Positions 2,088-35,823 of a stretch of 64,000 bases of DNA are shown piece after piece. Within the stretch, counting starts at the first letter, position 1. Each line of letters opens with the position of its first letter. The translations under genes and the position numbers were made by a program. The DNA is from Corallococcus exiguus (GTDB lineage: Bacteria > Myxococcota > Myxococcia > Myxococcales > Myxococcaceae). Where the stretch lies: NCBI RefSeq assembly GCF_017302975.1, contig NZ_JAFIMT010000003.1, one strand, 5' to 3'. The notes below the pieces were generated by a model. It searched no databases. It was given only the letters and a program-made list of their open reading frames with translations, and was not told the origin of the DNA.

Positions 2088-2211
2088 GCCCACGTCCCTC
2101 CAGGGCGGATGTCCGCCCATATTATGAACATAATCCGTCCATCCCCTGGGCGCTCGTCCGGGTGTCACTGTTCTCCAGGTCGCACGGGTGGCCGCCCTCG
2201 GGTCGCTCCGG

Positions 2212-3696: not shown

Positions 3697-3705
3697 GGCG
3701 GCGCG

Positions 3706-14546: not shown

Positions 14547-15362
14547 CTACTTCACGCCCGTGGGCTGGGTGATGGACTCGGAGCGGATGGTGTACTGGCC
14601 AGCGATGGCGTTCGTGTCGATGCCCGTGAAGTGACGGTACGGGTACGCGCCATCCGCGACGGTCTCGATGAACTCCACCGAGTCACCGGTGATGGACTTG
14701 CCGTTGATGTCCACGGTGAAGGTGTTCTTCTCCGAGTCCAGGCGCCACACGCACGCGCCCACGTTCGTCTCCGCGGAGCCGGTGGACAGACCGTCGATGT
14801 CGAAGTCGTTCAGGAAGTGGTGGTGCATCTCCGCCCAGCGGAGGAAGTCCCGCCAGTTGGTGAAGGTGATCATCAGCCCGGCCGGCTGCGGGCTGGAGCC
14901 CTGGAGCACGCCGCCCCGGTAGATGTTCATCCGGTACGCGGAGCCGCCCGGCGAGCCCGTGAACGTGGGCAGGATGTTGACCGTGTTCGCCTCGCGGCCC
15001 GGCGTCACCTTCAGCGTGCTGACGACCTGGTCGCCATCACGCGCGGCCAGCTGGTAGCCGCCCTGCGCCCCCAGGCTGAACGCCACGCGCTGCTCCCACT
15101 TCACGGCCTGCGTGAAGCTGCTGGAGACGCCGTCCTTCTGGGTCGTGAGGTTGGACACCGCCAGCCCGTCCGCGACGGCATCCACCTTCGCGCGGCCCAG
15201 CGCGCAGCTGGTGATGCCTTCGAACTTCTTCACGCACTGGGACGCCGCGGCTTCCTGCGCGTTCAGGGAACCGGAGGCCTGGCCGTCGTCGGCACCGCCC
15301 GCGCAACCCGTGATGCCGAGCAGCATGGAAGCCAGCAGGGAACCCGTGATCTTCAAATGCAT
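14547..15362 (-). CDS. lipoprotein, unknown function
   Basis: Lipobox LLGITGC after MHLKITGSLLASM. Protein-like composition (W, Y, F, N, T-rich beta). ATG at 15360-15362. Confidence 0.7.
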   Translation of the reverse strand: MHLKITGSLLASMLLGITGCAGGADDGQASGSLNAQEAAASQCVKKFEGITSCALGRAKVDAVADGLAVSNLTTQKDGVSSSFTQAVKWEQRVAFSLGAQGGYQLAARDGDQVVSTLKVTPGREANTVNILPTFTGSPGGSAYRMNIYRGGVLQGSSPQPAGLMITFTNWRDFLRWAEMHHHFLNDFDIDGLSTGSAETNVGACVWRLDSEKNTFTVDINGKSITGDSVEFIETVADGAYPYRHFTGIDTNAIAGQYTIRSESITQPTGVK

Positions 15363-17179: not shown

Positions 17180-18064
17180 CTAGGCGGCCAGCTTCTCCCC
17201 GCTGCCTTCCACGGGCCTGCCGGAGAGCGCGGCGACCTCGTGCTCGCTCAGCACGAGCTTCGCTTCGGAGCCGCTCCAGACGAACGGGATGCCCGGCTGG
17301 CGGTACAGGTTCGCGGGGATCTCCTGCGCCAACTGCGCGTGCAGCTCCGGCAGCTTGGACCAGTGCAGACCGTGCCGCGTGTGATGCGCGGTGTGGTAGC
17401 CCAGGTTGCCCGTCATCAGGTTGTAGCCCTTGTGGAGGATGTTGTACGAGGCCTCCGAGTGGTTGGCCGTCTCCAGGCCCACGTGGTGGAAGTACGTGGC
17501 CCAGGTCGTCACGTAGAGCGACGCCATCATGGGCAAGAGGAACACGAAGAGCGCGTTGTAGGGGTTCACCCAGAACAGGCCCGCCAGCAGCACCACCTGG
17601 AGCGCGGCCATCCACACGAACACGCGCAGCGCCTTGGGGTGATGCTTCTTCCCCACGTGGAACGCGCGCGGGTACGCGGTCAGCGCCGTGCTCAGCGAGT
17701 ACTCCACCTCGCCCATCGTCGAGCCGTCATCCCGCTTCCAGCGCGACTCGTCCTGCGTCTGGTCCAGGTAGTTCTTGTGGTGGCCCAGCACGTGGTGGAG
17801 GAACCACGCCTGCGACGTCACGCCCGTCTGGAAGCCGAAGACGATCTCCAACAGGCGGTTGGGCAGCGCGTGCTTGAAGAAGGACAGGTGCTGGTGGTGG
17901 TGGTTCCACGAGCAGATCCATCCCTTGGGGATGATGCCCAGCCCGAACCACAGCACCGGGATCCACCAGCTCTGGGCCGTGAGGAACACCGTCACGTCGA
18001 GCGCGAACACGCCAAGGAACATCAGGACCGGGATGCGATCTTCAGGGTGCCGGAACAGGGTCAT
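17180..18064 (-). CDS. membrane fatty-acid desaturase / hydroxylase-family di-iron enzyme (three His boxes)
   Basis: His boxes HHHQH, HHVLGHH and HTAHH separated by hydrophobic helices. True ATG (MTLFRHPEDR...) at 18064; the track extension to 18169 is artificial. Divergent from the haem-oxygenase-like gene. Confidence 0.8.
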   Translation of the reverse strand: MTLFRHPEDRIPVLMFLGVFALDVTVFLTAQSWWIPVLWFGLGIIPKGWICSWNHHHQHLSFFKHALPNRLLEIVFGFQTGVTSQAWFLHHVLGHHKNYLDQTQDESRWKRDDGSTMGEVEYSLSTALTAYPRAFHVGKKHHPKALRVFVWMAALQVVLLAGLFWVNPYNALFVFLLPMMASLYVTTWATYFHHVGLETANHSEASYNILHKGYNLMTGNLGYHTAHHTRHGLHWSKLPELHAQLAQEIPANLYRQPGIPFVWSGSEAKLVLSEHEVAALSGRPVEGSGEKLAA

Positions 18065-18282
18065 GGGCTTCCGAGACAAGTGGGCCGGGGCAAAAATGCC
18101 GCTTTTCCAACTGTAGGCTGCATTCCCCACCCCGAACAGCCCGCCCTTGTCCGCCTGCACGTTCCACACTGGCGGTAAACAACGTAGTCACGTTGTACTT
18201 GTCTTTCCACATTTCCAAGAATCACAGTCCTGCTTTGTGATAAACGCCGACCCAGCCCTTTTGGACCACCCTGGAGGCGGCA

Positions 18283-18945
18283 ATGCGGAACCAGACCATC
18301 GAGGCGGCACTGGCGAAGAATCCCCACCGTGAGCAGCTGATCAAGCACCGGTTCTTCGAAGTGGTGGATGAGAAGGCCTTCAGCCGCGATCAGGCGGAGC
18401 TGGTGCTGGGTCAGTGGTGGCACCCCCTGCACTATTTCCCCACGTTCCTGGGCAAGCTGATCGCCGTCTGCCCGCAGATGGAGATGAAGACGGCGGTGAC
18501 GCACATCCTCAACCAGGAGGTGGGCGAGGGAGACCCGGCGCGCGCGCACGAGCGCTTCTTCATCCAGACGATGACGGACGCGGGCTTCACCCAGGCGGGC
18601 GTGTCCGAGGCGGACATGACGCCCGCGACGCGCCGGCTCATCGACGGGTACCAGCGCTCCACGGACAGCCACCTCACCGGCCTGGGCTTCCTCTACGGCA
18701 CGGAGGTGGCGGACCTCACCATGGTGGCCAAGCTGGGCAAGCTGGTGCGCCGCACCACGGGCCTCAAGGCCCTGCCCTGGGTGGACATCCACGTGAAGCA
18801 GGAGCCGGATCACGTGGAGACGGCCGGCCACACCATGGGCCTCGCGTACACGGACGAGGAGTTGGCCACCATCACGCGCGGTGCCGAGGAGATGTGGCAG
18901 CTGTGGGTGGGTTTCTTCGAGGAGCTGCGCAACCGCGTCGTCTGA
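18283..18945 (+). CDS. haem-oxygenase-like fold protein (TenA/PqqC/CADD-type; candidate haem-oxygenase-like diiron oxidase)
   Basis: GGAGG SD 7 nt upstream of the ATG. All-helical composition with conserved acidic and His positions (QEVGEGD, AHERF, HVKQEPDHVE) and a WWHPLHYFP segment typical of the PF14518-like iron-containing redox enzyme family. Confidence 0.65.
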   Translation: MRNQTIEAALAKNPHREQLIKHRFFEVVDEKAFSRDQAELVLGQWWHPLHYFPTFLGKLIAVCPQMEMKTAVTHILNQEVGEGDPARAHERFFIQTMTDAGFTQAGVSEADMTPATRRLIDGYQRSTDSHLTGLGFLYGTEVADLTMVAKLGKLVRRTTGLKALPWVDIHVKQEPDHVETAGHTMGLAYTDEELATITRGAEEMWQLWVGFFEELRNRVV

Positions 18946-20831: not shown

Positions 20832-22619
20832 CTACTGGACGACGCGGACGTTGAGGGACGACGACGGTCCACCCACGGCCGGCGGCACCCAGGGCACCAC
20901 CTTCTTGTTCTGCCACTGGACCAGCTTCAGCGACGGGTCCTCCAGCGGCACGTCGAAGGTGTAGGAGATGCGCGTGGGTCCTTCCGCGTCCGCCTCCTCA
21001 ATCTTCACCGTCATGCCCTTCATGTCGAACTCGTCGCCCTTGTGCACCGGGTGGCGCGCGGCGCGGTGGATGCGCTCCTCCACGGAGTCCAGGAAGTGGC
21101 CGCCCTTGGTGAGCTCCAGCTCCACCGAGTTGGGGCCGGTGCGCGTCACCTTCTGCTCGTAGAGCGAATAGGACAGCACCCACCAGGCCTTCGGCAGCGG
21201 ATTGCCCGAGGACCACCAGCGCACGGAGCCGTAGATGCCGATGATGCCGTTGGGGGCGTTGAGCACCACCACGCGCTGATTGGAGAGCTTCGTCTGATCG
21301 AACGCCTCCTCGTAGCGCGCCTGCACGCGCCCCATGAGCGCGTCCGCCTGGGAGTACTGCTCCATGGTCTGCCACCAGAGGTACGGCGAGCCCACGACGT
21401 GGATGAGGGCCATCACCGCCGCGCCGGCCAGCACCGCGCCCGCGCGGAACGTCTTCGCCCGCCCCTTCCACGCGTGGCGCAGCACCACGGCCAGGCCCAC
21501 CGCCATGCCCAGGCTGGGCACGATGAGCGTGCGCGAGCCGGCGAAGGCGGAGTTGGACATCCACGTGGCCACGAACGCGCCCGTCAGCATCCAGCCCACC
21601 GTGCGGCGCTCCGCGGACTCCAGCCGGGGCCACACGCCCCACACCAGCAGCGCGAACAGCGTGAAACCCACCGCGCCCAGGATGGTGAAGAGGGGCACCA
21701 GGGACTGGTCGAAGATGAAGTCCGGAGGCGCGTTCAGCGTCAGGCCCGCGATGGCGGCCGGGACGCGCCCGAGCATCGCCTGGAACCACGCCACGGGCGT
21801 GCCCAGGGCGTCCAGGTACATGTCCGAGCCGCCGGCGCCGTAGCCCATGGCCCGGTACGCCGCGAAGTAGAGGGCCATCAGCACGCCGAAGGGGATGAGC
21901 CCCTTGATCTTGTCCTTCGCCTGCCCCGGGCCGGAGAAGGCCTCGTAGGCCAGCACGTACGGGCTGAGGATGACCATCGTCTCGCCGCACAGGAGCGCCA
22001 GCGCGAAGGACACCAGCGCGCCCACCAGGCTGCTCGTGCGCTTCTCCTCCCGCCACTTCACGTGGAGGAAGATGCCGAGGACGCCGAAGAGCAGCGACAT
22101 CACCACGCTGCGGTAGGACAGCCAGCCCAGCACCGCCGCGTGCGAGCCCCAGATGGCGAAGAGGAACATCGCCACGCCCGCCACCGCCGTGGGCAGCACG
22201 CGCTTGAGCAGCACGCCCGCCAGCACCACCAGGCCCACGTACCAGAGCAACGAGTGGAACTGGTAGGCCACGGCCACGCGGTTGTAGAGCACGTGGTCCA
22301 GTCCGTAGAGCAGGCTGCCCAACGGCCGGAAGAACGCGACGCGCACGGTGGGCTCCACCCACCACGGGAAGACGCCCACCTGCGCCAGGTGCAGCGTGTG
22401 CTCCGGGATGCCCGTGGCCGTGCGGTACACGTCCAGCGGCGTGTTCCCCAGCGGCGCGGGCGGCGGAATGTTGTCCCAGACGCCCAGCCAGATGAAGTCA
22501 TCCGGCATGAATCCCGAGCGCAACGCGAGCGCGCCCAGCGCCACCGCGAACACGATGGAAATCCAGAAGTAACGCTTAAACGGCCAACCCGGGGCGGCTG
22601 GCGGAGGAGAAGTATCCAT
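20832..22619 (-). CDS. large polytopic membrane protein, unknown function (possibly a glycosyl/arabinosyl-transferase-like fold)
   Basis: More than 10 predicted TM helices in the N-terminal 400 aa and a soluble C-terminal domain. Protein-like composition. ATG at 22617-22619. Confidence 0.65.
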   Translation of the reverse strand: MDTSPPPAAPGWPFKRYFWISIVFAVALGALALRSGFMPDDFIWLGVWDNIPPPAPLGNTPLDVYRTATGIPEHTLHLAQVGVFPWWVEPTVRVAFFRPLGSLLYGLDHVLYNRVAVAYQFHSLLWYVGLVVLAGVLLKRVLPTAVAGVAMFLFAIWGSHAAVLGWLSYRSVVMSLLFGVLGIFLHVKWREEKRTSSLVGALVSFALALLCGETMVILSPYVLAYEAFSGPGQAKDKIKGLIPFGVLMALYFAAYRAMGYGAGGSDMYLDALGTPVAWFQAMLGRVPAAIAGLTLNAPPDFIFDQSLVPLFTILGAVGFTLFALLVWGVWPRLESAERRTVGWMLTGAFVATWMSNSAFAGSRTLIVPSLGMAVGLAVVLRHAWKGRAKTFRAGAVLAGAAVMALIHVVGSPYLWWQTMEQYSQADALMGRVQARYEEAFDQTKLSNQRVVVLNAPNGIIGIYGSVRWWSSGNPLPKAWWVLSYSLYEQKVTRTGPNSVELELTKGGHFLDSVEERIHRAARHPVHKGDEFDMKGMTVKIEEADAEGPTRISYTFDVPLEDPSLKLVQWQNKKVVPWVPPAVGGPSSSLNVRVVQ

Positions 22620-22840: not shown

Positions 22841-24256
22841 ATGCGCATCGCCATCATCGCCACGTACACCCATCCGACCCGGCTGCGAATCAAGGAACCC
22901 TCCATCATGCAGTCCTCCGTGCCGGAGCTCATCGCGGGCCTGTGCCCGGAGCACGCGGAGGTGGAGATCTTCAACGAGAAGGAGGCGGAACTGCCGTTGG
23001 ACCGCCACTGGGACCTGGTCTTCTTCTCGTACCTGCACTCGTACTACGAGCACACCAAGGTCCTCTCCACCCTCTTCCGTCAGCGCGGCATGACGACGGT
23101 GGCGGGAGGCCGGCACGCGGGCCACTTCCCCGACGACGCGGCGAAGTACTTCGACGCGGTCATCACCGGGGAGCCGGAGTCCAACGTGCCCGCGCTCATC
23201 GCGGACTTCGAGAAGGGCGAGCTCAAGCCCCGCTACAGCCTGCCGTCGCAGGGCGCCGCCGCCATCCGGCCGTACCGCTACGAGCTCATCGACTTCAAGC
23301 ACAACAAGGTGCGCCTGCCGGGCATCGAGGCGTCGCGCGGCTGTCCCTTCACGTGCAACTTCTGCGTGCTCACCGGCCACGAGCGCTACCGCTTCCGGCC
23401 CATCCCGGAGGTCATCGACGAAATCCAGACGCGCATGCGCTGGAACCCGAACTTCCTGGGGCTGATGGGGGACGCGTTCGTCTTCCTGGACAACAACCTG
23501 GGCGGCTCGCCCAAGTACCTGCGCGCGCTGTGTGAAGCGCTCATCCCGTTGAAGAAGACGTGGGGCTGCGCGCTCACCTTCAACGTGCTCAAGGACGAGT
23601 CGCTGGTGAAGCTGATGGCGAAGGCGGGCTGCCGCTACGTCTACACCGGCCTGGAGTCGCTCAACCCGGACTCGCTCAAGGCGATGAACAAGGGCCAGAA
23701 CAAGCTGTCGGAGGTGGACGCCGTCATCCGCCGCGTCTTCTCCGCCGGCATCCTGCTGTCGTTCGGGCTCATCGTCGGTTCGGACGGCGACACCAACGAG
23801 TACCTGCACCGGCTGCCGGACTACCTGGCGGACCTGAAGTACTTCTCCGTCACGTTCCTGGGCATCGTGTGCCCGTATCCGGAGACGCCCTTCTTCCGCG
23901 AGCTGAAGGCCGAGGACCGGCTCTTGCCCGGCACCACCAGCCGCGACTACGACGGCTACACGCTGTGCCACCGGCCCAAGCAGATGCACGCGTCGGAGGT
24001 GGTGGAGCACTTCCAGCGGCTGTGCCACACGCTGGGCAGCCTGCCCAACATCGCGCGGCACTACGCGTCCAAGCTGATGATGAGCGACCTGCCCCGCTAC
24101 AAGCAGACCATCCTCTTCTCCGGGCCGGAGATCGTCAGCATCCGCAACCCGGTGAAGAACAAGGAGCGCCGCTACATCGCGGGGCTGGATGCCATTGAAG
24201 CGTGGGACGCGGAGCGGATGCCCGCGCTGGGCCTCACGCCGCAGGTCCTGACCTGA
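22841..24256 (+). CDS. B12-binding-domain radical SAM enzyme (class B rSAM)
   Basis: N-terminal cobalamin-binding-like Rossmann region, then the radical-SAM cluster motif CPFTCNFC (CxxxCxxC). Its 3' end overlaps the convergent desaturase gene by about 23 nt. Confidence 0.85.
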   Translation: MRIAIIATYTHPTRLRIKEPSIMQSSVPELIAGLCPEHAEVEIFNEKEAELPLDRHWDLVFFSYLHSYYEHTKVLSTLFRQRGMTTVAGGRHAGHFPDDAAKYFDAVITGEPESNVPALIADFEKGELKPRYSLPSQGAAAIRPYRYELIDFKHNKVRLPGIEASRGCPFTCNFCVLTGHERYRFRPIPEVIDEIQTRMRWNPNFLGLMGDAFVFLDNNLGGSPKYLRALCEALIPLKKTWGCALTFNVLKDESLVKLMAKAGCRYVYTGLESLNPDSLKAMNKGQNKLSEVDAVIRRVFSAGILLSFGLIVGSDGDTNEYLHRLPDYLADLKYFSVTFLGIVCPYPETPFFRELKAEDRLLPGTTSRDYDGYTLCHRPKQMHASEVVEHFQRLCHTLGSLPNIARHYASKLMMSDLPRYKQTILFSGPEIVSIRNPVKNKERRYIAGLDAIEAWDAERMPALGLTPQVLT

Positions 24257-25145
24257 TCCGGGACGGCAGGCGCACGTCCCACGCCAGCCCCAGGGCCTGG
24301 AGCGCTCGGATGAAGAGCCAACCCGGGTCCCACTGCCACCACACCCAGCCGTGCCGCGCGGACGCGGGGAAGGCGTGGTGGTTGTTGTGCCAGCCCTCGC
24401 CCAGCGCGAGCACGCTCACCCACCACACGTTGCGGCTGTGGTCGCGCGTGTCGTGGACGCGCTTGCCGAACGCCGCGTGGCACACGGAGTTCACCGCGTA
24501 GGTGCTCTGCATCCAGCACACCACGGGCAGGAAGAAGTACGCGGGCACCGTGCGCCAGCCGAACGTCAGCCCCACGAAGAGCACCCCCAGCACCTGCGGC
24601 GCGATGCGGTAGCGCAGGAGCCAGTGGTAGTAGCCGTCTTCCGCCATGTCGCGGCACCAGGTGCGCCAGCCGTCCTCTTCCGTGGAGGACTCGTTGAGGA
24701 TCCACCCCATGTGCGCGTACCAGAAGCCGCGCAGCGGCGAGTGCACGTCCCCGTCCGCGTCCGCCTTCGCGTGGTGCAGCCGGTGGTTCGCGGCCCACAG
24801 GAGCGGACTGCCCTGCGCGGTGAGCATGGCCACCGACACCAGCGCGTACTCCACCCAGCGGGGGCACGCGAAGGCGCGGTGGCACAGGAGCCGGTGCAGC
24901 CCCACCGTCGTGCCCAGGCCAATGGACACGTACACGGCCAGCGCCACCGGCAGCGCGTACGGCGGCCAGGGCAGGAAGAACGCCAGCGCGGCCAGCCCGT
25001 GGACCACGAGCATGTAGATGACGATGACGGGACTGAGCTGGAAGCGGAGCGGTGCGGTGATCATGGCCCGGTGCGGAAGTCGAAGAAGAAGCACGCAGTC
25101 TAGGAGCCCCGCCTGACGGGACAAGGAATGCGTCCGGCGCGTCAC
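24234..25145 (-). CDS. acyl-CoA/acyl-lipid Delta9-type desaturase (DesC/stearoyl-CoA desaturase family)
   Basis: Family-diagnostic boxes GLHRLLCHRAF, ANHRLHH and GEGWHNNHHA. Two start options: GTG at 25145, which forms a GTGA overlap with the stop of the upstream cyclase gene, or ATG at 25067. Confidence 0.85.
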   Translation of the reverse strand: MTRRTHSLSRQAGLLDCVLLLRLPHRAMITAPLRFQLSPVIVIYMLVVHGLAALAFFLPWPPYALPVALAVYVSIGLGTTVGLHRLLCHRAFACPRWVEYALVSVAMLTAQGSPLLWAANHRLHHAKADADGDVHSPLRGFWYAHMGWILNESSTEEDGWRTWCRDMAEDGYYHWLLRYRIAPQVLGVLFVGLTFGWRTVPAYFFLPVVCWMQSTYAVNSVCHAAFGKRVHDTRDHSRNVWWVSVLALGEGWHNNHHAFPASARHGWVWWQWDPGWLFIRALQALGLAWDVRLPSRIRSGPAA

Positions 25146-28100
25146 ATCACGCGAGCGTCACGGGACCGGGAGGCCTGGGACGCCACGAGCGCCTCGACCG
25201 GCGGGGCCTGGAGGGTGGCCTGGAAGCGGTCCATGCGGCGCAGCTCCGCGCGGGCCTCCACCTCCGTGAAGATGGCGCGCGCTCGGGCGAGGAACTCCTC
25301 GCGCCGGTTCGGCAGCGCCACCGCCGCGTCGAAGTAGGCCACGCCCGTCTCCCAGCGGTTGGGGCTCTTCTCCAGGACGGCGATGGCCTCCAGGAACACC
25401 GGCTCCGCGGCCTTGGGCCCCTTGCGCAGGGCCAGCGAGCGCGCTGTCACGCGCAGCGCCGGGCCCTTCAGGTACGGATAGAGCCTCGCGATGACGCGCG
25501 CCTTGAGGCAGGACAGCCGCACGACCTTCAGCAGCTTCTTGCGCGGCACCACCGTGGCGCCCTCCTCCAGCGCGAAGAGGGCCGCCTCCGCCGCGTCCAC
25601 CAGCCCCACCTGGAGGAAGGGCACCAGCACCTGATAGCTCCAGATGCTCTCGAAGCAGCGCACCGCGACGAGCGCCGCCTCCTCCACCTGGTGCTCGCGC
25701 ACCGTGACGTTGGCCAGGTGGTTCAAGCTGGCGCACTGGTTGGCCAGGTCCGCCACCTCCTCGCTGATGCGCAGGCCCTGCTCCAGCTCCGCGCACAATT
25801 CGCCCACGTCACCTTCGCCCAACAGGTAGCGGCACATGGGCGCCCACGAGTGCGCCCAGCCCTGGTGCATCAGCGCGTTGAGCTCCACGCCAATGGTCCC
25901 CATCTGCTCGTAGAGCGCCACCGCCGTGCGGAAGCGCGAGTGGAGGAACTCGCCCGTGGCCTGCATCATCAGCGACGTCTGGCGCTCCCAGCGCTCGCCC
26001 ACCTGGCGCAGCGTGGAGACGGCCTCCTCCTGGAATTCGCGCGCGCGCTCCAGTTCGTTGGCGAAGAAGGCCTGGATGCCCAGGCGGCTGAGCGCGAGCC
26101 CCTCCGCCACCGGATCCTTGGAGCGGCGCGCGTACTCCAGCGCCTTCTCACAGTGGTAGCGCGAGCGCTTGAGCAACCCCGCGCCGAACAGGAGCGTGCC
26201 GTAGTAACCGCGCGCCATGCTCATGGCGTAGTCGTTGCGCGAGCGCTCCGCCATGTTGGTGGACACCAGCGTCGCCCAGGTGAGCTTGGTGATGTCCGCG
26301 AAGTAGTAGATGCGGATGAGCGAGTTGAGCGTGGACAGCTGCTGCAGGTAGTTGCCCAGCCTCGCCGCCGGCAGCGGGCGCAGGATGAAGGGCAGCAGCG
26401 TCGCGAGCCCCCGGAGCAAGAGGTTCGCCAGCGTGCGCAGGCCCAGCGCGGCCAGGCTCCCGGGGAGGCTGCGGCCCCTCAGCACCAGCGACTTCTCCAG
26501 GTGCTGCGTGGCGAGCGCGGACTCGCCCTTCTCCTGGTGCGCGCGGCCCAGGCCCAGGTGCAGCTCCGCCTGGAGCGGGGGCTCCTCCTCGTCCACCAGG
26601 CACTGCTCGAACATCAGGATGGCGTTGGCGTAGTGGCCCGCCTGGAGCAGCGTCTCCGCCAGCTCCTGCATCACCCGGCGCGTCTGGAGCAGCGTCACCT
26701 CCGGGTCCACCGGGACGACGGTGCCGAGCAGCTCCAGGCCCCGATTGTAGTGGTAGAGCGCGTCGTCGTTCGCGTACTGCGCCCGCGCGCTGCGGGCCGC
26801 CATCAGCGTGTACGCCAGGCCCTTGTCCTCCACGTTGCCCGCGAGGAAGTGGAACGCGAGCAGACCCGCGGAGCCCGCGAGGTTGTCGTTGGCGCGGGCC
26901 TCCAGGTAGCGCGCGAGCCGGCGGTGCAGGTCCTCACGCGCCGACACCAGCAGCGTGTTGTAGGCCACGTCGCGGATGACGATGTGCTTGAAGAGGCAGG
27001 TGTACGGCTCCTCCGTCTCCAGCAGGATGAGGCCCAGGCGCTGGAGCGTGTCCATGGCCTCGCGCAGCACGCCGTGCCCCAGCGTGGGCACCAGCGCCGC
27101 CACCGCGTCCAACGTGAAGATGCGCCCGATGACGGACGCCACCTTCACCACCAGCTTCTCCGTCTCGCTGAGCAGGTCGATGCGCGACAGCACCACGTCC
27201 TGGATGGAGTCCGGCAGCAGCAGGTCCTGGAGGCCGCGCTTCACCTCCATGCGCGGCGAGCCGGGCTCCACCGGGCCCAGGTAGCCCTGCTCCGCCAGGC
27301 CCTCCACGATGGATTCGATGAAGAACGGGTTGCCCTGCACCTTCGCGAGCAGCCGGTCCTCCAGCGCGACGTCCGGCGGCGACAGGCGCAGGTGCACGCG
27401 CAGGAGCGCCCGCGTGTCCTCTTCGTCCAGGCTCGTCAGATCCACCGGGACGAACTCCGGCAGGTCGCGCAGCCCGCGCAGCTGGTCGCCCGGGCGCATC
27501 GTGGCCAGCACCATGATGCGGTGCGAGCCCACGCGCACCGCCAGGTACTGGAGCAGGTCCAACGAGATGTAGTCCGCCCAGTGCAGGTCCTCGAAGAAGA
27601 GCAGCAGTGGCTGCGCGCGGCTGAGCTTCTCCAGGAGCTGGAAGATGATCTGGAACACCTTCTGCTGCTTGCGCCGCGCGTCCATCCCCGCCGTGGCGGA
27701 CGTCTCCTCCAGCGACATGCCGAGGATGCCCGCGACCACGGGAATCCACTCCGGCCCCACGTCCTCCAGGCCGTCCAGCCCCTGCCGCAGGCGCGCAAGC
27801 TGCGCCTCGGTGTCGTCCGAGTCGTGCAGACCGAAGGCCTGGAGCAGCACCTCCTTCCAGGGGAAGAAGGGGGTGAAGGCCTCGTAGGAGTAGCAGACGC
27901 CGTACAGCGCCCGGGCGCCGCCCTCCTCCGCGTCCTCCAGCACGCGCGCGCCCAGCCGCGACTTGCCGATGCCCGCCTCGCCGGACACCACGCTCACGCG
28001 GCCCTGGCCCGCGAAGGCCGCGGTGAGCGACGCGTGCAGCACGTTGAGCTCGCGGCTGCGGCCGATGATGTCGCCCCGACCCTTGATGAAGAGGCCTCGG

Positions 28101-29443
28101 CGCGTCTCCCCCAACAGCCGGTACACCGGCACCGAGCGCGAGACGCCCTTGAGCTTCGCGTCCTCCACGAACTCCGTGGAGAAGCCGCCCTGCTGCGAGC
28201 GCGACCGGGTGTTGGCGCACAGGTGCACGCCGTCCTGGCGTCCGCCGTGCGTCATCAGACGCGCGGCCATGTTCACGACCTCGCCCAGCGCCGAGTAGCC
28301 CTTGCGCGTGGGCGAGCCCATGTCCCCGCAGTAGGCGTGGCCGGTGGCGATGCCGATCTGCAGCTCATCCAGGAAGGGGAACTGCTCCCGGGCCTTGAGC
28401 AGCTTGCAGGCCAGCCGGCACGCCAGCACCTCCTTGTTCTGCTGGGCGGTGGGCGCGCCGAACAGGACGTAGAGCACGTTGCCCTTGTCCGTGAAGTCCG
28501 TCATCAGCAGCACGCCGCCGTGGTGGGCGGACTCGCGCTGGACGTATTCGTAGTAGGCGTTGAGGTCGTGGGTGAACGCGTCCGGATCCGTGTCCGCCCG
28601 CGCGTGGGTGAAGCGCACGAAGAAGCAGGTGACGTCGCGGAAGTCGCCCGCGAACTCCTGGTGCGCGGTGGTGATCTTCGTGAAGAGCACCGGGTGCAAA
28701 AGCAGCGCGCACCGGCCCACCAGCTCCGCCCCACCCGTGGGCGCGGGCAGCGGGCGCTTCACCGATTCCACCGGCGCGTCGAGCGCCAGCCGGTGGTTGC
28801 CGCCCTCGCGCGGCTCGCCCCTGCGCGCGGACTCCGGCAGCGCCGCCCAGGCGCGCGGGCTCAAGACGACCTCCGACACCGTGGCCTGCTTCTCCGCGCC
28901 CACCGCCTGCGCCAGCGGCTCTCCCACGAGCGCCGGGTGCATCCACAGGCCGGTGGTGCCCATCACGATGCGGGTGGCCTCACCAAAGCCGATGCCGATG
29001 CGCGACGACACGCCGAAGCGCTGGCCCAACAGCTCCAGCCGGGCGAAGCGCGCGAGCCTGCGCTGCACGCCCAGCGCGCACACCGCCGCTCGCTGCACGA
29101 CGTCCGCGTCCGCTTCCTCGGGCGCGGACTCGAAGCACGCGAGGATGGAGTCGCCGGCGAACTGGTAGATGTCCCCGCCGTGGTCGCGGACCACGTCGAT
29201 CATCTCCGTGTAGTAGTTCGTCAGCAGGCGCTGGAGCGCGTCGATGCCGCGAGGGCCCGCGCCGCTCAGCCCCACCACGATGGGCGTGAAGCCCGCGATG
29301 TCCAGCAGCAGGATGGCGCCCCGCACGCCCTCCGCCCGGGGCAGCGCGTCCGCATCCTGGCTCCCAAGCCGCGCGAGGATGGCCGCCGGCATGTACGGGG
29401 CCAGCATCGCGACAGCGGGATCGATGGGCTGCGTGGAGGGCAT
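25142..29443 (-). CDS. multidomain signalling protein: two class III adenylate/guanylate cyclase homology domains, an AAA/P-loop NTPase and C-terminal TPR/helical repeats
   Basis: CHD1 carries the metal-binding Asp motifs (LLDIAGFT, FAGDS). CHD2 lacks them but has the transition-state Asn/Arg motif (EVVNMAARL). Walker A GEAGIGKS, then a long TPR-like helical region. ATG at 29441-29443. Confidence 0.85.
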   Translation of the reverse strand: MPSTQPIDPAVAMLAPYMPAAILARLGSQDADALPRAEGVRGAILLLDIAGFTPIVVGLSGAGPRGIDALQRLLTNYYTEMIDVVRDHGGDIYQFAGDSILACFESAPEEADADVVQRAAVCALGVQRRLARFARLELLGQRFGVSSRIGIGFGEATRIVMGTTGLWMHPALVGEPLAQAVGAEKQATVSEVVLSPRAWAALPESARRGEPREGGNHRLALDAPVESVKRPLPAPTGGAELVGRCALLLHPVLFTKITTAHQEFAGDFRDVTCFFVRFTHARADTDPDAFTHDLNAYYEYVQRESAHHGGVLLMTDFTDKGNVLYVLFGAPTAQQNKEVLACRLACKLLKAREQFPFLDELQIGIATGHAYCGDMGSPTRKGYSALGEVVNMAARLMTHGGRQDGVHLCANTRSRSQQGGFSTEFVEDAKLKGVSRSVPVYRLLGETRRGLFIKGRGDIIGRSRELNVLHASLTAAFAGQGRVSVVSGEAGIGKSRLGARVLEDAEEGGARALYGVCYSYEAFTPFFPWKEVLLQAFGLHDSDDTEAQLARLRQGLDGLEDVGPEWIPVVAGILGMSLEETSATAGMDARRKQQKVFQIIFQLLEKLSRAQPLLLFFEDLHWADYISLDLLQYLAVRVGSHRIMVLATMRPGDQLRGLRDLPEFVPVDLTSLDEEDTRALLRVHLRLSPPDVALEDRLLAKVQGNPFFIESIVEGLAEQGYLGPVEPGSPRMEVKRGLQDLLLPDSIQDVVLSRIDLLSETEKLVVKVASVIGRIFTLDAVAALVPTLGHGVLREAMDTLQRLGLILLETEEPYTCLFKHIVIRDVAYNTLLVSAREDLHRRLARYLEARANDNLAGSAGLLAFHFLAGNVEDKGLAYTLMAARSARAQYANDDALYHYNRGLELLGTVVPVDPEVTLLQTRRVMQELAETLLQAGHYANAILMFEQCLVDEEEPPLQAELHLGLGRAHQEKGESALATQHLEKSLVLRGRSLPGSLAALGLRTLANLLLRGLATLLPFILRPLPAARLGNYLQQLSTLNSLIRIYYFADITKLTWATLVSTNMAERSRNDYAMSMARGYYGTLLFGAGLLKRSRYHCEKALEYARRSKDPVAEGLALSRLGIQAFFANELERAREFQEEAVSTLRQVGERWERQTSLMMQATGEFLHSRFRTAVALYEQMGTIGVELNALMHQGWAHSWAPMCRYLLGEGDVGELCAELEQGLRISEEVADLANQCASLNHLANVTVREHQVEEAALVAVRCFESIWSYQVLVPFLQVGLVDAAEAALFALEEGATVVPRKKLLKVVRLSCLKARVIARLYPYLKGPALRVTARSLALRKGPKAAEPVFLEAIAVLEKSPNRWETGVAYFDAAVALPNRREEFLARARAIFTEVEARAELRRMDRFQATLQAPPVEALVASQASRSRDARVM

Positions 29444-29461: not shown

Positions 29462-29863
29462 TCAGGACAGGTTGGCGAAGCGCAGGTACAGGGCGCCCAG
29501 GCACATGGCGCCGTAGAGGGGGATTTCCGCCGTCTCCGGCCAGGGCTGCTGCTTGCGCACCGCGCCCCAGACGTGCACCGCCGTCATCAGTCCGCCAATG
29601 AGGCCGATGAGCTCGAAGATGACCAGGTGGCTCTTGGGGTCCGGGATGAACTGCACCACCGCGATGATGACGGACAGCGCCAGGCCGCCCAGGCAACGCG
29701 CGAAGTAGACCGTCAAATCGTTGTTGCCCGTGGGCAGCTCCCACCCGAACCAACGCGCCCAACGCAGCGGGATGAACAGCAATGGCAGTGCGTAGACGAC
29801 CAGGAAGACCGAGGTGGAGACCGCGAGGAACCAGCTGGCCAGCGGATAGTCGGGGTTGATCAT
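29462..29863 (-). CDS. small membrane protein, unknown function
   Basis: Three or four hydrophobic helices from the internal ATG (MINPDYPLASWFLAVSTSVFLVVYALPLLFI...) at 29863. Ends 18 nt upstream of the cyclase start. The track's Arg/Pro-rich N-terminal extension is rejected. Confidence 0.45.
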   Translation of the reverse strand: MINPDYPLASWFLAVSTSVFLVVYALPLLFIPLRWARWFGWELPTGNNDLTVYFARCLGGLALSVIIAVVQFIPDPKSHLVIFELIGLIGGLMTAVHVWGAVRKQQPWPETAEIPLYGAMCLGALYLRFANLS

Positions 29864-29996: not shown

Positions 29997-30527
29997 CTAG
30001 CGGGTGGCGGCCAGGAGGAACTCGGCCACCCGCTCCAGGGAGGTGGTGCGCTCGGCCTCCGCCGGGAAGCGCCGGAACAGCTCCGGTGGCCCGTGCAGGA
30101 TGAGCGGCTTGCCATAGCGCAAGGCCAGGACGGCCTCCGCGGCGGTGCCAGCGCCCCCGGGCAGCGCGACCAGGGCATGAGGCGTCAGCACGTTGATGTG
30201 GTTGCGGCTCATGGGGTCCGTGCCCTGCTCCCCGCTGAGCGGCAGGTGCGTGTAGATGGGGATTTCGATGTCCGTGTTGGGGTAGCCGGCCCGGGGCTGG
30301 TAACGGCCGTCCGCGCCCACGGTGCCGGGGATGATGCCGATGGCCGCCCCCCGCCGCCCCTCCACCTGGACGAAGGCGCCCGCCGCCGCGCTCATGACGC
30401 CGCCGCCCGCGCCGGTGAGCAGGTCGAACCCGGCCTCCGCGATCCACCGCGCCAGGGGGACGACCCACTCCTCGTGAGAGTGCGCCCCGGAGCCGAACAC
30501 TCCGATGATGCGGCGGTGTCTGCGCAT
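29997..30527 (-). CDS. LOG-family / TIGR00725-like Rossmann-fold protein (cytokinin riboside 5'-monophosphate phosphoribohydrolase-like)
   Basis: GGAGG SD 9 nt upstream of the ATG at 30527. IGVFGSG...GGGVM and PGGAGTAAE motifs are typical of the LOG/DprA-like Rossmann family. Confidence 0.75.
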   Translation of the reverse strand: MRRHRRIIGVFGSGAHSHEEWVVPLARWIAEAGFDLLTGAGGGVMSAAAGAFVQVEGRRGAAIGIIPGTVGADGRYQPRAGYPNTDIEIPIYTHLPLSGEQGTDPMSRNHINVLTPHALVALPGGAGTAAEAVLALRYGKPLILHGPPELFRRFPAEAERTTSLERVAEFLLAATR

Positions 30528-31628: not shown

Positions 31629-34600
31629 TCAGGGCACGTCCAGCACGACGCCCTGCCCCGGGACGGCCATCACCCAGCGGACGACGTCGGGCTTGCCGCC
31701 GCAGGTGACGCGCACCTCGAACTCGCGCCCCGCGGGCATCTGGTTGGACAGGGGCGTCTGGCCCTCCAGCACCTGCGAGCCCAGCGCCACGCGGCAGCCC
31801 TGGGCACCGGTGATGCTGAGCATGCCCCGGGCCTCCGCCTGGGGCGGGGCGTCCGCGAGCGTGCGCAGGTCGATGTGCTCCGACTTCGGCACCTTGCCGA
31901 AGCGGTGCAGCTTGCCGTCCACGGCCGTGGAGATGAGCCAGCCGGTGTTGCCTTCGGGCAGGCCCTGGCTCGCATCCAGCAGGACGCCGGACACGTAGAC
32001 GCGCTCGCCCTCCTGGGCGTTGCGCACCTCCACGCCGCCCTTGGGCAGCAGGAACACCAGCGCGAGCCCCGCGAGCACCAGGCCCACGCCGCCCACGATG
32101 AGCCCCTTGCGCTGACCGGGCGTCATCCCCTTCCCCGTCGCTTCGGCGGCGGGCGCTGAAGCCGCGGGGGAGACCGCGTGGACTGGTGGGGCCGGCGGCG
32201 CGGCCACGGGGGCCGCCGGAGGCCGCGCGGGCGGAGCCACGGGAGCGGACACGGGCGGAGCATGCGGGGCAGCCACGTGCGGCGGCGGCGCGGCCACGGG
32301 AGGGTGTCCCCCATAGGCCGCGTGGGAGCCGGTCGGCGGCGGCGCATGGTGCCCCAGCGGCGGCTGCGGGGCGCTTCCCTGCTGCGCGTGGGCAGCCCCG
32401 TATTGCGCGTGGGTGCCCCCATGCGACGGGGGCGCTGCCACGGGGTGCGGCTGCGGAGCCGCGGTCAGGGGGGCGACGGAGGGCACCGCCACCGACGGAC
32501 GCGCGGGCGCCTGCGGCGGAGGCCCCACGCGCGTGGGCACGTTGGCGGACGCCGCGGGGCGCACCGCGGTGGGCGGCGGCAGCGGCGAGGCGGGCGGAGG
32601 CGCTGCCGGGCGCGACGGACGGGGGGCGGCGGCCACGGGCGGTGCCACCGGAGGCGCGGCGGCCACGGGCGGCCCGTTGACGGAGACGACCTCGGTGCCG
32701 CGCTCGGCGGGCTCCGGCGGGGAGGCCACCGGGGGCGGCTCCATCCGGGGCATGCTGCCGGAACCGCCGCGCACGGGCGGCCGGGACAGGTCCGAAGGGG
32801 CCCGCATGTCGCTGCCCGAGCCCGTGCCCACGTTGCGCGAGTGCGAGCCCGTGCCCGGCATCAGCGCCCGGGGGTTGGAGCCCGTGCCCGGGCCGGCGAT
32901 GGACGACGGCGCGTACTCGGAGAGCCGGTCACCCAGCGCCTCCTTGAAGAACTGCGCCACCGACGCGGGCGACGAGGACAGCCGGTGGTGCGCGATGACG
33001 GCTTCAATCTCCTCGCGCATCGCCGCCGCGGAGGGCGTGCGCCGCGCCGGGTCCTTCACCAGCGCGCGCAGGATGAGGTCCGACACGTCCTGCGGGATGT
33101 GGGGCCGCAGCTGCGAGGGCACCGGCGCGGGCTCGCGCACGATGGCCGCGAGCGTGGCCGCGTCATGGTCCCTGCGGAACGGCAGCTGGCCGGTGAGCAG
33201 CTCGAAGAGCACCACGCCCAGCGCGAACACGTCGTTGCGCCAGTCCAGCGGGCGGCCGCTGGCGGCCTCCGGGGAGAGGTACGAAATCTTCCCCTTGATG
33301 ACGCCCGCCTGCGTGTGCTCCTCGCCCTGCACCTTGGCGATGCCGAAGTCCGACAGCTTGATGGCGCCGTCCAGCGACACCAGCACGTTGTGGGGGCTGA
33401 CGTCGCGGTGCACCACCGGGTGCGCCGTGCCGGAAGGGTCCACGTAGCTGTGCGCGTAGTGCAGGCCCGCGGCCACCTCCGCCACGATGCGCAGCGCGTG
33501 CTCCAGCGGCAGCGCCATGCCCTTGCGGCGCAGCTCCGTGAGCAGGCGCTTCAGGTCCGGGCCGCGCACGTACTCCATCAGGATGTACGCCACGCCGTCC
33601 GTCACGCCCACGTCGAAGGTCTGCACGACGTTGGGGTGCGTGAGGCGCGCGTTGGCGCGGGCCTCCGCGAAGAGCATGTCGACGAACTCAGGATTCTCAG
33701 CGAACTGCGCGAGAATCTTCTTCATCACCACGAACTTCTCGAAGCCCTTCACGCCCTGCTGCTTGGCGAGAAACACTTCCGCCATGCCGCCCTGCCCCAG
33801 CCGGCGGATGATCTGCAACCGCGCGCCGCTGGTGTGCGTGTCCGTGGCTGACGAGCCCCGGGCGCCGGGGTCCGTGTTGGTGGAGCCGAAGAGGTACTGG
33901 CTGAGCGCGCGCTGCTCCAGCGCCTCGATGTCCTCCAGCGGCTTGTCCGTGAGCGGCGTGCGCGCGAGCAGCCCCTGGAACTGCGCGAGCGCCGGGGCCC
34001 GGGCGTTGCCGCCGCAGACGGGGCACACGCGCTCCATGGTGCCCTTGGCGCGCAGGACTTCCAGGTACTCGGAGGTCTGGATGCGCTGGTGGGTGACCTG
34101 GCCGCAGTTGCGGCAGTCGCACGGCAACCACAGCGTGGCCAGCTTCGCGGGCAGCGTCTTGGTGGACTTCGCCAGCACGGCCAGCAGCGGCGGCGGCACG
34201 CGGCAGAGCACCACCTGGGCGCCCTGCGCCGCCACCTCCAGCACCTGTTCGATGCGCGGCAGCGCTTCCTGCTCCACCACGCTCACGTGGCAGCAGTCGA
34301 ACGCGACACGCCCCTCCAGGCCGGACGCCAGCCGGCGCACGTTGAGGTCGCCCTTGAGCGTGCTGGCCAGGGTGATGAAGGTGATGTCGTCCTGGACGAT
34401 CTTCAGGTGCGACGCGAGCTCGGACGGCTCGGACGGGATGCCGGAGCGCAGGTAGCGCAGCACCGCGGGATCCACCGCGGAGAACTGCTGGCGGCGCGCG
34501 AAGTCGAAGAACTCCGTGGGCTCGTCCGCGAACTCCAGCGGCTGGGAGCACACCGGGCACTGGTGCGGCGGGGCCCCGCCCTGCTCCAGCACCTTCGCCT

Positions 34601-34976
34601 CCTCCACCAGGCGGACCAGCCGCAGCCGGTCCTCCTTGCAGAAGCGGCACGTGTACGGCGCCAACAGGGAGAGCACGCGCGCGACGCCCGCGAAGCCCTC
34701 CACCATGTTGAGCTGATCCACCACCACCGGCGGCGCGTTGACGACGTACAGCCCCGACACGCCCTGCGGCGGGTGGCCGGCGAACTCGATCCACCGGCGC
34801 ACGCCGAAGGAGCTGATCCGCTCCACCAGGCCCAGGTCCACCACCACCAGGCCCTGGATGCCCTTGGAGGCTGGCGAGAGGGGGAAGGTTTCGTCGATCA
34901 CCCCGGCCACGCGCACGTGGGTCAGACTGCCCACGCGCAGGGAGGTGATGCTGGCATTGGAAGTTTGGCTCTCCAC
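31629..34976 (-). CDS. Ser/Thr protein kinase (Hanks type): two N-terminal STAS-like domains each followed by a Cys4 zinc ribbon, then kinase domain, Pro/Ala-rich linker, one TM helix and a C-terminal extracytoplasmic domain
   Basis: Kinase subdomains GQGGMAEVFLAKQ, VMK, HRDVSPHNVLV, DFGIA and SPE. Zinc ribbons CRFC..CPVC and CDCRNC..CPVC. TM helix LIVGGVGLVLAGLALVFLL. Start assigned to a GTG, which I place at about 34976 with an uncertainty of roughly 1 nt. That GTG is preceded by GAGGG and lies 4 nt after the stop of the upstream gene. The track start at 35057 would overlap the upstream gene by about 77 nt. Confidence 0.85.
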   Translation of the reverse strand: MESQTSNASITSLRVGSLTHVRVAGVIDETFPLSPASKGIQGLVVVDLGLVERISSFGVRRWIEFAGHPPQGVSGLYVVNAPPVVVDQLNMVEGFAGVARVLSLLAPYTCRFCKEDRLRLVRLVEEAKVLEQGGAPPHQCPVCSQPLEFADEPTEFFDFARRQQFSAVDPAVLRYLRSGIPSEPSELASHLKIVQDDITFITLASTLKGDLNVRRLASGLEGRVAFDCCHVSVVEQEALPRIEQVLEVAAQGAQVVLCRVPPPLLAVLAKSTKTLPAKLATLWLPCDCRNCGQVTHQRIQTSEYLEVLRAKGTMERVCPVCGGNARAPALAQFQGLLARTPLTDKPLEDIEALEQRALSQYLFGSTNTDPGARGSSATDTHTSGARLQIIRRLGQGGMAEVFLAKQQGVKGFEKFVVMKKILAQFAENPEFVDMLFAEARANARLTHPNVVQTFDVGVTDGVAYILMEYVRGPDLKRLLTELRRKGMALPLEHALRIVAEVAAGLHYAHSYVDPSGTAHPVVHRDVSPHNVLVSLDGAIKLSDFGIAKVQGEEHTQAGVIKGKISYLSPEAASGRPLDWRNDVFALGVVLFELLTGQLPFRRDHDAATLAAIVREPAPVPSQLRPHIPQDVSDLILRALVKDPARRTPSAAAMREEIEAVIAHHRLSSSPASVAQFFKEALGDRLSEYAPSSIAGPGTGSNPRALMPGTGSHSRNVGTGSGSDMRAPSDLSRPPVRGGSGSMPRMEPPPVASPPEPAERGTEVVSVNGPPVAAAPPVAPPVAAAPRPSRPAAPPPASPLPPPTAVRPAASANVPTRVGPPPQAPARPSVAVPSVAPLTAAPQPHPVAAPPSHGGTHAQYGAAHAQQGSAPQPPLGHHAPPPTGSHAAYGGHPPVAAPPPHVAAPHAPPVSAPVAPPARPPAAPVAAPPAPPVHAVSPAASAPAAEATGKGMTPGQRKGLIVGGVGLVLAGLALVFLLPKGGVEVRNAQEGERVYVSGVLLDASQGLPEGNTGWLISTAVDGKLHRFGKVPKSEHIDLRTLADAPPQAEARGMLSITGAQGCRVALGSQVLEGQTPLSNQMPAGREFEVRVTCGGKPDVVRWVMAVPGQGVVLDVP

Positions 34977-34980
34977 CCGC

Positions 34981-35823
34981 CTACCCTCGTTCCAGACTGA
35001 ACAGCAGCGACTTGGGCTGCGAGGCCCGGCGGCGAGCGTCGCCCAGGTCCACGCCACACGCGAACTGCGTGCGCTTTCCCGGAGTCACCCGCACCGCTAC
35101 CACGTCGCTGTGCTCCAGGATGCGCCGCAGACCCAGGCCCGCGCCACCACCCGAAGCATCCACCTGCGCCTTCTCACCCCAGGCCTTCACCACCCGCACC
35201 AGCGGTGACACCGACAGGCGGCCGAAGCGATCCGTCGCCTCCAGCCACGCCCGGCCGTCCGCCACCGCCCACGACACCAGGCAACGGTCTTCATCCGCCA
35301 CCGACTGCACCTGGCCGCGCCGGTGGGCGTACTTCGGCTCGCCGCTTCCGTCCACTGGCGCATCGAGCAGCGCGTTCACGCCAATCTCATGGACGACATC
35401 CGCCACCCGGCTGGCCGCGCCCTTGGAGCCGCCAGCCTGGAGGACGGCCTCGGCCGCGCGCTCGCCCACGGCCGTCACCTCCGCCACGCTGCCCAGCCAC
35501 GCCACGGACGTGGCGGCCTCCTGGGGGATCATGGGCTCGCCGCGCAGGAGCGCGCTCAGCAGCCGCGCCTCCCAGGCGGACGGCTGGCCGCCCTCGCGGG
35601 TGGCCAGCAGCAGCGCCGGGGGACGGCGCTCCAGGAGCGCGGCGTGGGCGGGAGTGAACCGCCCGTCGAACAGCACCAGCTGCGGCGCCGCGTCGTCACC
35701 GCGCCCCAACAACAGGCCGTCCCGGGCCAGCACTCCGGAGGCCTTCTCCAGCGCCTCCGGCGTGAGCGTCGTGTCCGGCGTCAACTTCAGGGGAGCATCC
35801 TTCACGGCGGCGACGGTATCCAA
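34981..35823 (-). CDS. GHKL/HATPase_c-type ATP-binding protein resembling anti-sigma-factor serine kinases (RsbW/SpoIIAB-like)
   Basis: The C-terminal half carries an N-box-like VHEIGVNALLDA, a G1-like DRFGR and a G2-like GGGAGLGLRRILE. Starts 8 nt after the TonB receptor stop. Its stop lies 4 nt before the kinase GTG, and the kinase SD sits inside its last codons. Confidence 0.6.
   Translation of the reverse strand: MDTVAAVKDAPLKLTPDTTLTPEALEKASGVLARDGLLLGRGDDAAPQLVLFDGRFTPAHAALLERRPPALLLATREGGQPSAWEARLLSALLRGEPMIPQEAATSVAWLGSVAEVTAVGERAAEAVLQAGGSKGAASRVADVVHEIGVNALLDAPVDGSGEPKYAHRRGQVQSVADEDRCLVSWAVADGRAWLEATDRFGRLSVSPLVRVVKAWGEKAQVDASGGGAGLGLRRILEHSDVVAVRVTPGKRTQFACGVDLGDARRRASQPKSLLFSLERG

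Follow-up and report, generated by a model that had tools for sequence, protein, structure and literature searches.

A tandem class III cyclase of Corallococcus exiguus resembles human soluble adenylyl cyclase and probably forms one composite active site coupled to a STAND/TPR module

The window analyzed here, a stretch of 64,000 nucleotides from Corallococcus exiguus contig NZ_JAFIMT010000003.1 (assembly GCF_017302975.1) with a GC content of ~70%, carries on its minus strand a long open reading frame (ORF) whose GC content at third codon positions (GC3, 0.97) is like that of the other real genes of the window. The encoded protein, which shares 96% identity with a Corallococcus protein labelled “AAA family ATPase”, comprises two cyclase homology domains (CHDs, hereafter C1 and C2), a STAND module, and an all-helical TPR-like sensor (Table 1). 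Pfam recognizes only the second CHD (Guanylate_cyc, residues 270-438, E 1.7e-12), along with an AAA_16 domain (residues 460-645, E 3.3e-23) and sub-threshold TPR matches within residues 920-1150. The first CHD, although missed by Pfam, is a genuine one as judged by phmmer and by its predicted fold. In the segment ahead of C1, Y17 and P19 are nearly invariant in the alignment of homologues. No transmembrane-like segment or signal peptide was found in the protein, the top Kyte-Doolittle 19-mer (1.88) being the β1 catalytic strand of C1. Assignment to the TOMM kinase/cyclase fusions (TIGR03903) was considered and rejected: the protein scores 222 bits against an NCBIfam cutoff of 706, aligns only over residues 259-904, which span C2 and the NTPase, and contains no kinase domain.

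Table 1 Features of the cyclase gene and of its immediate neighbours, with positions in the window.
Feature	Residues	Nucleotides	Strand	Basis or remark
Whole gene: tandem-CHD / STAND NTPase / TPR	1433 plus stop	25142..29443	-	ATG start, TGA end
N-terminal helical segment ahead of C1	1-36	29336..29443	-	AlphaFold2 helices at 9-17, 20-26
CHD1 (C1)	37-220	28784..29335	-	phmmer to sAC C1, AlphaFold2 fold, residue table
LLDIAGFT, first metal Asp D48	46-53	29285..29308	-	aligned to sAC D47
FAGDS, second metal Asp D98	95-99	29147..29161	-	alignment to sAC
GEPLAQAVGAEK, degenerate Asn/Arg region of C1	174-185	28889..28924	-	alignment to sAC
C1-C2 linker (45 residues)	221-265	28649..28783	-	AlphaFold2 secondary structure
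CHD2 (C2)	266-447	28103..28648	-	Pfam Guanylate_cyc, phmmer to sAC C2
GEVVNMAARL, Asn391 and Arg395	387-396	28256..28285	-	aligned to sAC N412/R416
STAND module: P-loop NTPase, helical domain, winged helix	~460-830	26954..28066	-	Pfam, AlphaFold2, Foldseek
Walker A GEAGIGKS	488-495	27959..27982	-	nearly invariant in alignments
Walker B region FFEDLHWAD	616-624	27572..27598	-	E, D, H, W, D invariant or nearly so
C-terminal all-helical TPR-like sensor	~833-1433	25145..26947	-	Pfam TPR, AlphaFold2, Foldseek
SLOG/LDcluster4 (TIGR00725-like) protein		29997-30527	-	upstream of cyclase, same strand
~130-residue protein, about four hydrophobic segments		29462-29860	-	upstream of cyclase, same strand
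DesA-type fatty-acid desaturase		24234-25145	-	start 4 nt before cyclase stop codon, overlap GTGA
B12-binding-type radical SAM protein		22841-24256	+	471-480 residues across cassettes; downstream, convergent, slight overlap

Searching the PDB with residues 1-448 (phmmer) identified human soluble adenylyl cyclase (sAC, ADCY10) as the best match (E 2e-22), in two collinear stretches that align residues 34-202 with sAC 33-197 (C1; independent E-value 4e-10, with CyaC also matched) and residues 262-447 with sAC 283-466 (C2). When the two domains were searched separately, each retrieved only its own counterpart: C1 matched sAC C1 (E 2.6e-14) and the first CHD of ~110 bacterial homologues, C2 matched sAC C2 (E 4.5e-13) and the second CHD of these homologues, and no cross-match was found at E < 1e-3 in either set. 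BLASTP detects no similarity between the two domains of the protein itself (E 0.34). Taken together, this indicates that the tandem duplication is older than the split from sAC, and does not represent a recent internal repeat. Identity to human sAC is only ~20%.

An AlphaFold2 model of residues 1-460, built on 40 homologues, was confident overall (predicted local distance difference test (pLDDT) 90.2, predicted template modelling score 0.89) and placed CHD folds at residues 37-220 and 266-447, the second domain thus being a CHD like the first, with pLDDT dropping to 80-86 in the linker region (residues ~220-270). When this model was compared with the PDB by Foldseek, the top 24 matches were all the catalytic core of human sAC, superposed over the whole chain at a template modelling score (TM) of 0.80-0.82 (best E 1e-31), followed by the soluble C1a/C2a portion of membrane adenylyl cyclase AC9 (TM 0.72-0.74, E 7e-20). 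Homodimeric bacterial CHDs (CyaB, Cya2, CyaC) each covered half of the model (TMt 0.71-0.79). This whole-chain superposition indicates that the predicted packing of C1 against C2 is that of the sAC pseudo-heterodimer. The original prediction, made from the sequence alone, had taken mammalian membrane adenylyl cyclase as the analogue, and the protein does share with that enzyme a pseudo-heterodimeric design in which one site is active and the other is degenerate and regulatory. However, human sAC, which likewise carries tandem C1-C2 domains in one soluble chain, is the nearer relative, as shown by the Foldseek E-values. The two six-helix membrane domains of transmembrane adenylyl cyclases (tmACs) are absent from the protein, C1 and C2 being parted only by the linker, and regulation by forskolin or G proteins is not expected.

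Residue roles in sAC were taken from Table 1 of PMC12867704 and mapped onto the protein by alignment, and conservation was counted across 111 bacterial homologues with both CHDs from at least six phyla. In human sAC, Asp47 and Asp99 bind the metals, Lys144 binds pyrophosphate, Lys334 recognizes the base, Lys95 and Arg176 bind bicarbonate, and Asn412 and Arg416 complete the set (PMC12867704). All motifs quoted in the original prediction were found in the translation, close to where it had placed them: LLDIAGFT, FAGDS, and GEPLAQAVGAEK in C1, and FFVRFTH (residues 274-280) and GEVVNMAARL in C2. The division of labour proposed from these motifs holds in the alignment to sAC, in which C1 has both metal-binding Asp residues without the Asn/Arg pair, and C2 lacks the first metal Asp but has Asn and Arg, so that each domain carries half of the catalytic set and neither carries all of it (Table 2). 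This is the pattern of human sAC, which also has the metal Asp pair in C1 only, the Asn/Arg pair in C2 only, and an xDKG β2/3 loop in C2. Both sAC-type loops are present here (AGD at residues 96-98 of C1, TDKG in C2), R148 of C1 occupies the position of sAC Lys144, and T53 of C1 a phosphate-binding position. The complementarity is exact and family-wide and not a peculiarity of this protein: both C1 metal Asp residues and the C2 Arg are kept in 111/111 homologues, the C2 Asn in 109/111, Lys or Arg at the Lys144 position in 108/111, and the C2 DKG loop in 107-108/111.

Table 2 Residues of C1 and C2 at the catalytic and substrate-specifying positions.
Position	C1	C2
Metal Asp 1	D48	R277
Metal Asp 2	D98	TDKG loop, residues 318-321 (sAC FDKG)
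First substrate position	Q94	M314
Second substrate position	A171	S384
Asn position	A178	N391
Arg position	G182	R395

Overall, these results are best explained if the protein is a soluble class III nucleotidyl cyclase of the sAC/ADCY10 type, with one composite site per chain and regulation by its STAND/TPR module, a reading to which we assign a probability of about 0.8. C1 and C2 would pack within one chain as a pseudo-heterodimer and form a single competent active site at their interface, as the split of residues and the superposition of the model on sAC both suggest. C1 would supply the metal-binding D48 and D98 and the pyrophosphate-binding R148, and C2 the transition-state residues N391 and R395 together with a nucleobase pocket formed by M314 and S384, while the pseudo-symmetric second site, with R277, A178, and G182, would be dead. 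In sAC this dead site is the bicarbonate pocket and in tmACs the forskolin pocket, and neither ligand set is present here. Unlike in human sAC, the bicarbonate-binding pair Lys95/Arg176 is replaced by Q94/V181, and bicarbonate activation via the degenerate site is therefore not expected. Across the homologues, Lys is found at the Lys95 position in 18/111 and Arg at the Arg176 position in 0/111.

Full-length orthologues are found across the Myxococcaceae (M. xanthus 69%, Hyalangium 60%, Stigmatella 59% identity) and, at lower identity, in Leptospira (34% over 98% of the length) and Chloroflexi-like genomes (~28%). In a scan of species-representative genomes, the tandem form was detected in Chloroflexota, Verrucomicrobiota, Acidobacteriota, Bacteroidota, Myxococcota, and Actinomycetota, together with many single-CHD versions whose CHD aligns to C2 only. 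Lehmann et al. 2013 (PMC3789758) describe LA_4008 of Leptospira, MXAN_4545, COCOR_04748 of Corallococcus coralloides, and STAUR_4866 as “two tandem CHDs + AAA-ATPase + TPR”. The protein belongs to this same family, with two N-terminal CHDs, an AAA domain, C-terminal TPRs, and similarity over the full length, and the gene thus adds a member to a known kind and is not the first of a new one. The arrangement, initially regarded as unusual for bacteria, is not unusual for this family: it is widespread in bacteria and already published. As far as we found, however, three aspects are unpublished: that the bacterial family shows this complementarity residue by residue, that the Arg by which sAC binds bicarbonate is missing throughout the family, and that the base pockets differ between subfamilies, with Met/Ser(Trp) in Myxococcaceae. 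The section of Lehmann et al. 2013 (PMC3789758) consulted here mentions neither a relationship to sAC nor the complementarity of the catalytic residues nor the non-canonical nature of the base pocket. The paper does report that culture supernatant of Leptospira carrying LA_4008 raised cyclic AMP (cAMP) in macrophage-like THP-1 cells, an effect abolished by depletion with anti-LA_4008, and it calls the myxobacterial cluster a toxin. The 69% homologue of M. xanthus is presumably MXAN_4545, a match that we draw from species and architecture and not from a confirmed locus tag. In M. xanthus DK1622, MXAN_4545 sits at one margin of a predicted “lantipeptide” region (MXAN_4545-4561) and within the bounds of the myxalamide region (MXAN_4508-4549) (PMC4902038), a placement in antiSMASH-type predicted regions that is probably a boundary artefact and not a functional link.

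A second link between bacterial cyclases and sAC comes from Chloroflexus aurantiacus, whose sAC-like cyclases are bicarbonate-responsive, as relayed by papers citing Kobayashi, Buck & Levin 2004 (Dev Genes Evol 214:503). Chloroflexota tandem-CHD/STAND/TPR homologues were among the matches to our protein. The Chloroflexus enzymes studied by Kobayashi, Buck and Levin are said to combine two catalytic domains with C-terminal similarity to sAC, one of them, Chl1187, reportedly being stimulated by bicarbonate.

The other departure from human sAC lies in the base pocket, where Lys334/Thr405 are replaced by Met314/Ser384, the register of M314 being fixed by the GG and DKG anchors alike. This pair corresponds to neither canonical combination (Lys with Asp or Thr for ATP; Glu with Cys, Ser, or Gly for GTP). 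Ser384, at the class IIIb hallmark position, is a conservative change from Thr405, and the same position holds Trp in sister genera and Thr or Gly in other subfamilies. All 45 Myxococcaceae-type sequences combine Met at the Lys334 position with Ser or Trp at that of Thr405, whereas many Chloroflexi-type homologues have K/T or Q/G at these two positions. The pairs seen in other subfamilies are K/T (canonical class IIIb), Q/G (a large group), H/T, L/T, E/G, and D/G. For comparison, the pair is Lys/Asp in class IIIa enzymes such as the membrane adenylyl cyclases, the non-canonical Gln/Asn in Mycobacterium tuberculosis Rv0386, and the guanylyl-cyclase-like Glu/Gly in Cya2. Some tandem-CHD/STAND/TPR homologues (P0084, P0098, P0100, P0073, P0080, P0112) pair an acidic residue, Glu or Asp, in place of Lys334 with Gly or Ser in place of Thr405. 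By its residues such a pair is guanylyl-cyclase-like, and the family probably spans several nucleotide specificities.

On current evidence, cAMP is the most likely product, at odds that we put slightly better than even: it is favoured by the homology, by the Leptospira data, and by a gene for a cNMP_binding-patatin protein near one orthologue, and the doubt stems from the Met/Ser base pocket. We consider it unlikely, although worth weighing, that the same fold and single composite site instead yield another product, with GTP or a pyrimidine NTP as substrate or with relaxed specificity brought about by the altered pocket. The Met common to all Myxococcaceae-type sequences, next to Ser or Trp, would fit such a shift, as would the distinct base pairs of the subfamilies, which suggest subfamily-specific substrates. 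Rv0386 (CHD-AAA-TPR, with Gln/Asn) is also said, in work by Castro and colleagues from 2005, to have a guanylyl-cyclase side activity, which we take as a point in favour of another product. However, sAC Lys334 touches the base via water only (PMC12867704), so that its loss need not alter specificity. The Leptospira member, linked to cAMP (PMC3789758), has an L/T-type pocket, and the cNMP_binding-patatin gene would fit an ordinary messenger of the cAMP/cGMP type.

Loss of the canonical substrate-specifying Lys could also be read as a sign that the tandem CHD has become a silent pseudo-cyclase, i.e., a nucleotide-binding or scaffold module of a STAND hub, and a bacterial tandem class III “AC-like ATP-binding protein” (6YII) is indeed among the Foldseek matches (TM 0.58). 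We regard this as improbable, since the match to sAC (TM 0.82) is far above that to 6YII, and the metal Asp residues, Asn, Arg, and pyrophosphate-binding Lys/Arg are invariant or nearly so in homologues from several phyla, a pattern expected of an enzyme selected for catalysis.

For the C-terminal part of the protein (residues 451-1433), phmmer returned only weak TPR matches in the PDB, and the STAND assignment thus required an AlphaFold2 model and Foldseek. The model (pLDDT 89.5) starts with a P-loop α/β domain, continues with helical and winged-helix modules, and is completed by ~25 paired helices. The top-ranked PDB structure was 6MFV (E 5.8e-15, 780 aligned columns), a PH0952-type STAND ATPase from Pyrococcus that bears a TPR sensor (PMC6468293), followed by Avs3, Apaf-1, and MalT (8BOB), and then by many TPR proteins including LGN/Pins and APC/C. 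This succession of nucleotide-binding, helical, and winged-helix domains and a TPR sensor, along with the AAA_16 domain and the Walker A and B motifs, lends structural support to the proposed coupling of the cyclase to an AAA NTPase and a TPR array with STAND-like regulation. Identity to PH0952 and MalT is 12-13%, and unlike here, the effector in these proteins is a helix-turn-helix, DNA-binding or other domain and not a cyclase. Myxobacterial paralogues of our protein (P0059-P0062; 42-43% identity over ~80% of the length, covering STAND and TPR) have a Ser/Thr protein kinase domain where our protein has its tandem cyclase, which shows effector swapping on one sensor scaffold. In human sAC, a P-loop (residues 516-523) lies ~50 residues past C2, with putative TPRs further on in the C-terminal region, compared with 41 residues past C2 here. 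The term “sCKH” is reportedly Roelofs and Van Haastert's name for the C-terminal region of sAC; our literature search for it gave irrelevant matches only.

By analogy with MalT and PH0952-type STAND proteins (PMC6468293), we infer that a ligand bound by the TPR array would relieve autoinhibition and drive ADP/ATP exchange and oligomerization, which would in turn switch the cyclase on. Since the active dimer would be intramolecular, however, the STAND module cannot work simply by bringing two CHDs together. This is plausibly how it works in single-CHD relatives such as Rv0386, which served as a comparator for Lehmann et al. (PMC3789758). Like our protein, Rv0386 fuses a cyclase to a STAND-type ATPase and TPRs (CHD + AAA ATPase + TPR + LuxR helix-turn-helix). 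Unlike in our protein, its one CHD carries the complete catalytic set, so that it must homodimerize, and a C-terminal DNA-binding domain is present. In the tandem form, the STAND module more likely controls the cyclase through allostery or autoinhibition, a role that the C-terminus plays in full-length sAC according to the sAC literature; a STAND oligomer might also concentrate activity in a hub. A full-text search found no literature on cyclase-STAND fusions.

Several points weigh against the interpretation of the protein as a STAND-regulated, sAC-type cyclase. The comparison with sAC covers the catalytic core. With Met314/Ser384 in the base pocket, ATP specificity, and possibly turnover, is not assured. 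Finally, the Leptospira evidence for cAMP is indirect and concerns host-cell cAMP, and no biochemical or enzymatic study of this protein or of any myxobacterial orthologue was found in the literature.

The gene, currently labelled “AAA family ATPase”, is better annotated as a bacterial relative of mammalian sAC with a predicted single-chain pseudo-heterodimer and a STAND/TPR module. Its value is mainly comparative, and current understanding is not overturned. Bacterial members, being expressible and genetically tractable, could help explain the poorly understood ~1100-residue C-terminus of sAC and could show STAND control of a cyclase that does not need dimerization. The family-wide table of base pockets (K/T, Q/G, E/G, M/S, M/W) provides testable predictions of substrate diversity, and the loss of Lys95/Arg176 predicts insensitivity to bicarbonate.

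The order of genes around the cyclase is conserved between the window, M. xanthus, Hyalangium, and Myxococcaceae GXIMD 01537, with the SLOG, small hydrophobic, and radical SAM proteins in the same cassette (Table 1). SLOG domains are predicted nucleotide-ligand binders, and the SLOG protein might read the cyclase product. More speculatively, and with little probability in our estimate, the Myxococcaceae branch, which has exchanged the Lys/Thr pair that recognizes adenine for Met plus Ser or Trp and retains all chemistry residues, may make a cyclic nucleotide other than cAMP or cGMP (e.g., a pyrimidine cNMP) or have an otherwise unusual specificity, with the signal perhaps read by this SLOG neighbour. 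If so, the cyclase and SLOG (LDcluster4) proteins of Myxococcaceae, in a lipid-related neighbourhood with radical SAM and desaturase genes, would constitute a new housekeeping, non-defence second-messenger pathway.

Two further readings seem very improbable, namely that the protein is an anti-phage STAND receptor of the Avs type whose effector is a cyclase (Pycsar/CBASS-style), or that it is a cyclase toxin that is secreted. In their favour, its STAND and TPR architecture matches Avs3 in Foldseek, PADLOC gives weak matches to PycC cyclase models (E 5e-11 to 1e-4), and Lehmann et al. (PMC3789758) place LA_4008-dependent activity in culture supernatant and apply the toxin label to the myxobacterial cluster. 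Against them, the PycC matches are partial and reflect generic CHD similarity, and neither a Pycsar effector nor another defence gene lies next to the cyclase, whose neighbours drew no PADLOC matches. The protein lacks a signal peptide and transmembrane segments. The gene belongs to the syntenic core of Myxococcaceae (60-96% identity), where its SLOG, small membrane protein, and radical SAM neighbours are retained, and is not part of a variable defence island. Membership in Pycsar systems proper (PycC plus a cNMP-activated effector) was rejected on the same grounds.

Downstream of the cyclase, the GTGA overlap with the desaturase gene suggests co-transcription. Fatty-acid desaturases and radical SAM proteins also flank distant orthologues (P0055, 39% identity, and P0051, 47%; L003 4663-5799 and L005 5058-5918). 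A conserved link to the adjacent desaturase was nevertheless rejected, as the desaturases of the window and of P0055 are not detectably similar and their adjacency is thus not orthologous, and the radical SAM neighbours of the window gene and of a distant orthologue are homologous but only 24% identical. Further lipid genes (Tam41-like and DAGK_cat) lie nearby in L003. In L005, the cNMP_binding-patatin (phospholipase) protein is encoded at 1853-3835 (-), three genes from orthologue P0051, and could be a cyclic-nucleotide-regulated lipid effector. Elsewhere in the window, three well-supported ORFs with GC3 of 0.88-0.96 have no Pfam match (20832-22619 (-), 14547-15362 (-), and 34981-35823 (-)), the first of them, of 595 residues, having no NCBIfam match either. 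Upstream of the SLOG gene and on the same strand, 31629-35057 (-) encodes a protein of 1142 residues with a Ser/Thr kinase domain at residues 415-680 as its sole Pfam match. About 6 kb from the cyclase, a second fatty-acid desaturase gene (17180-18169 (-)) lies side by side with a Haem_oxygenas_2 (iron-containing redox enzyme) gene (18283-18945 (+)).

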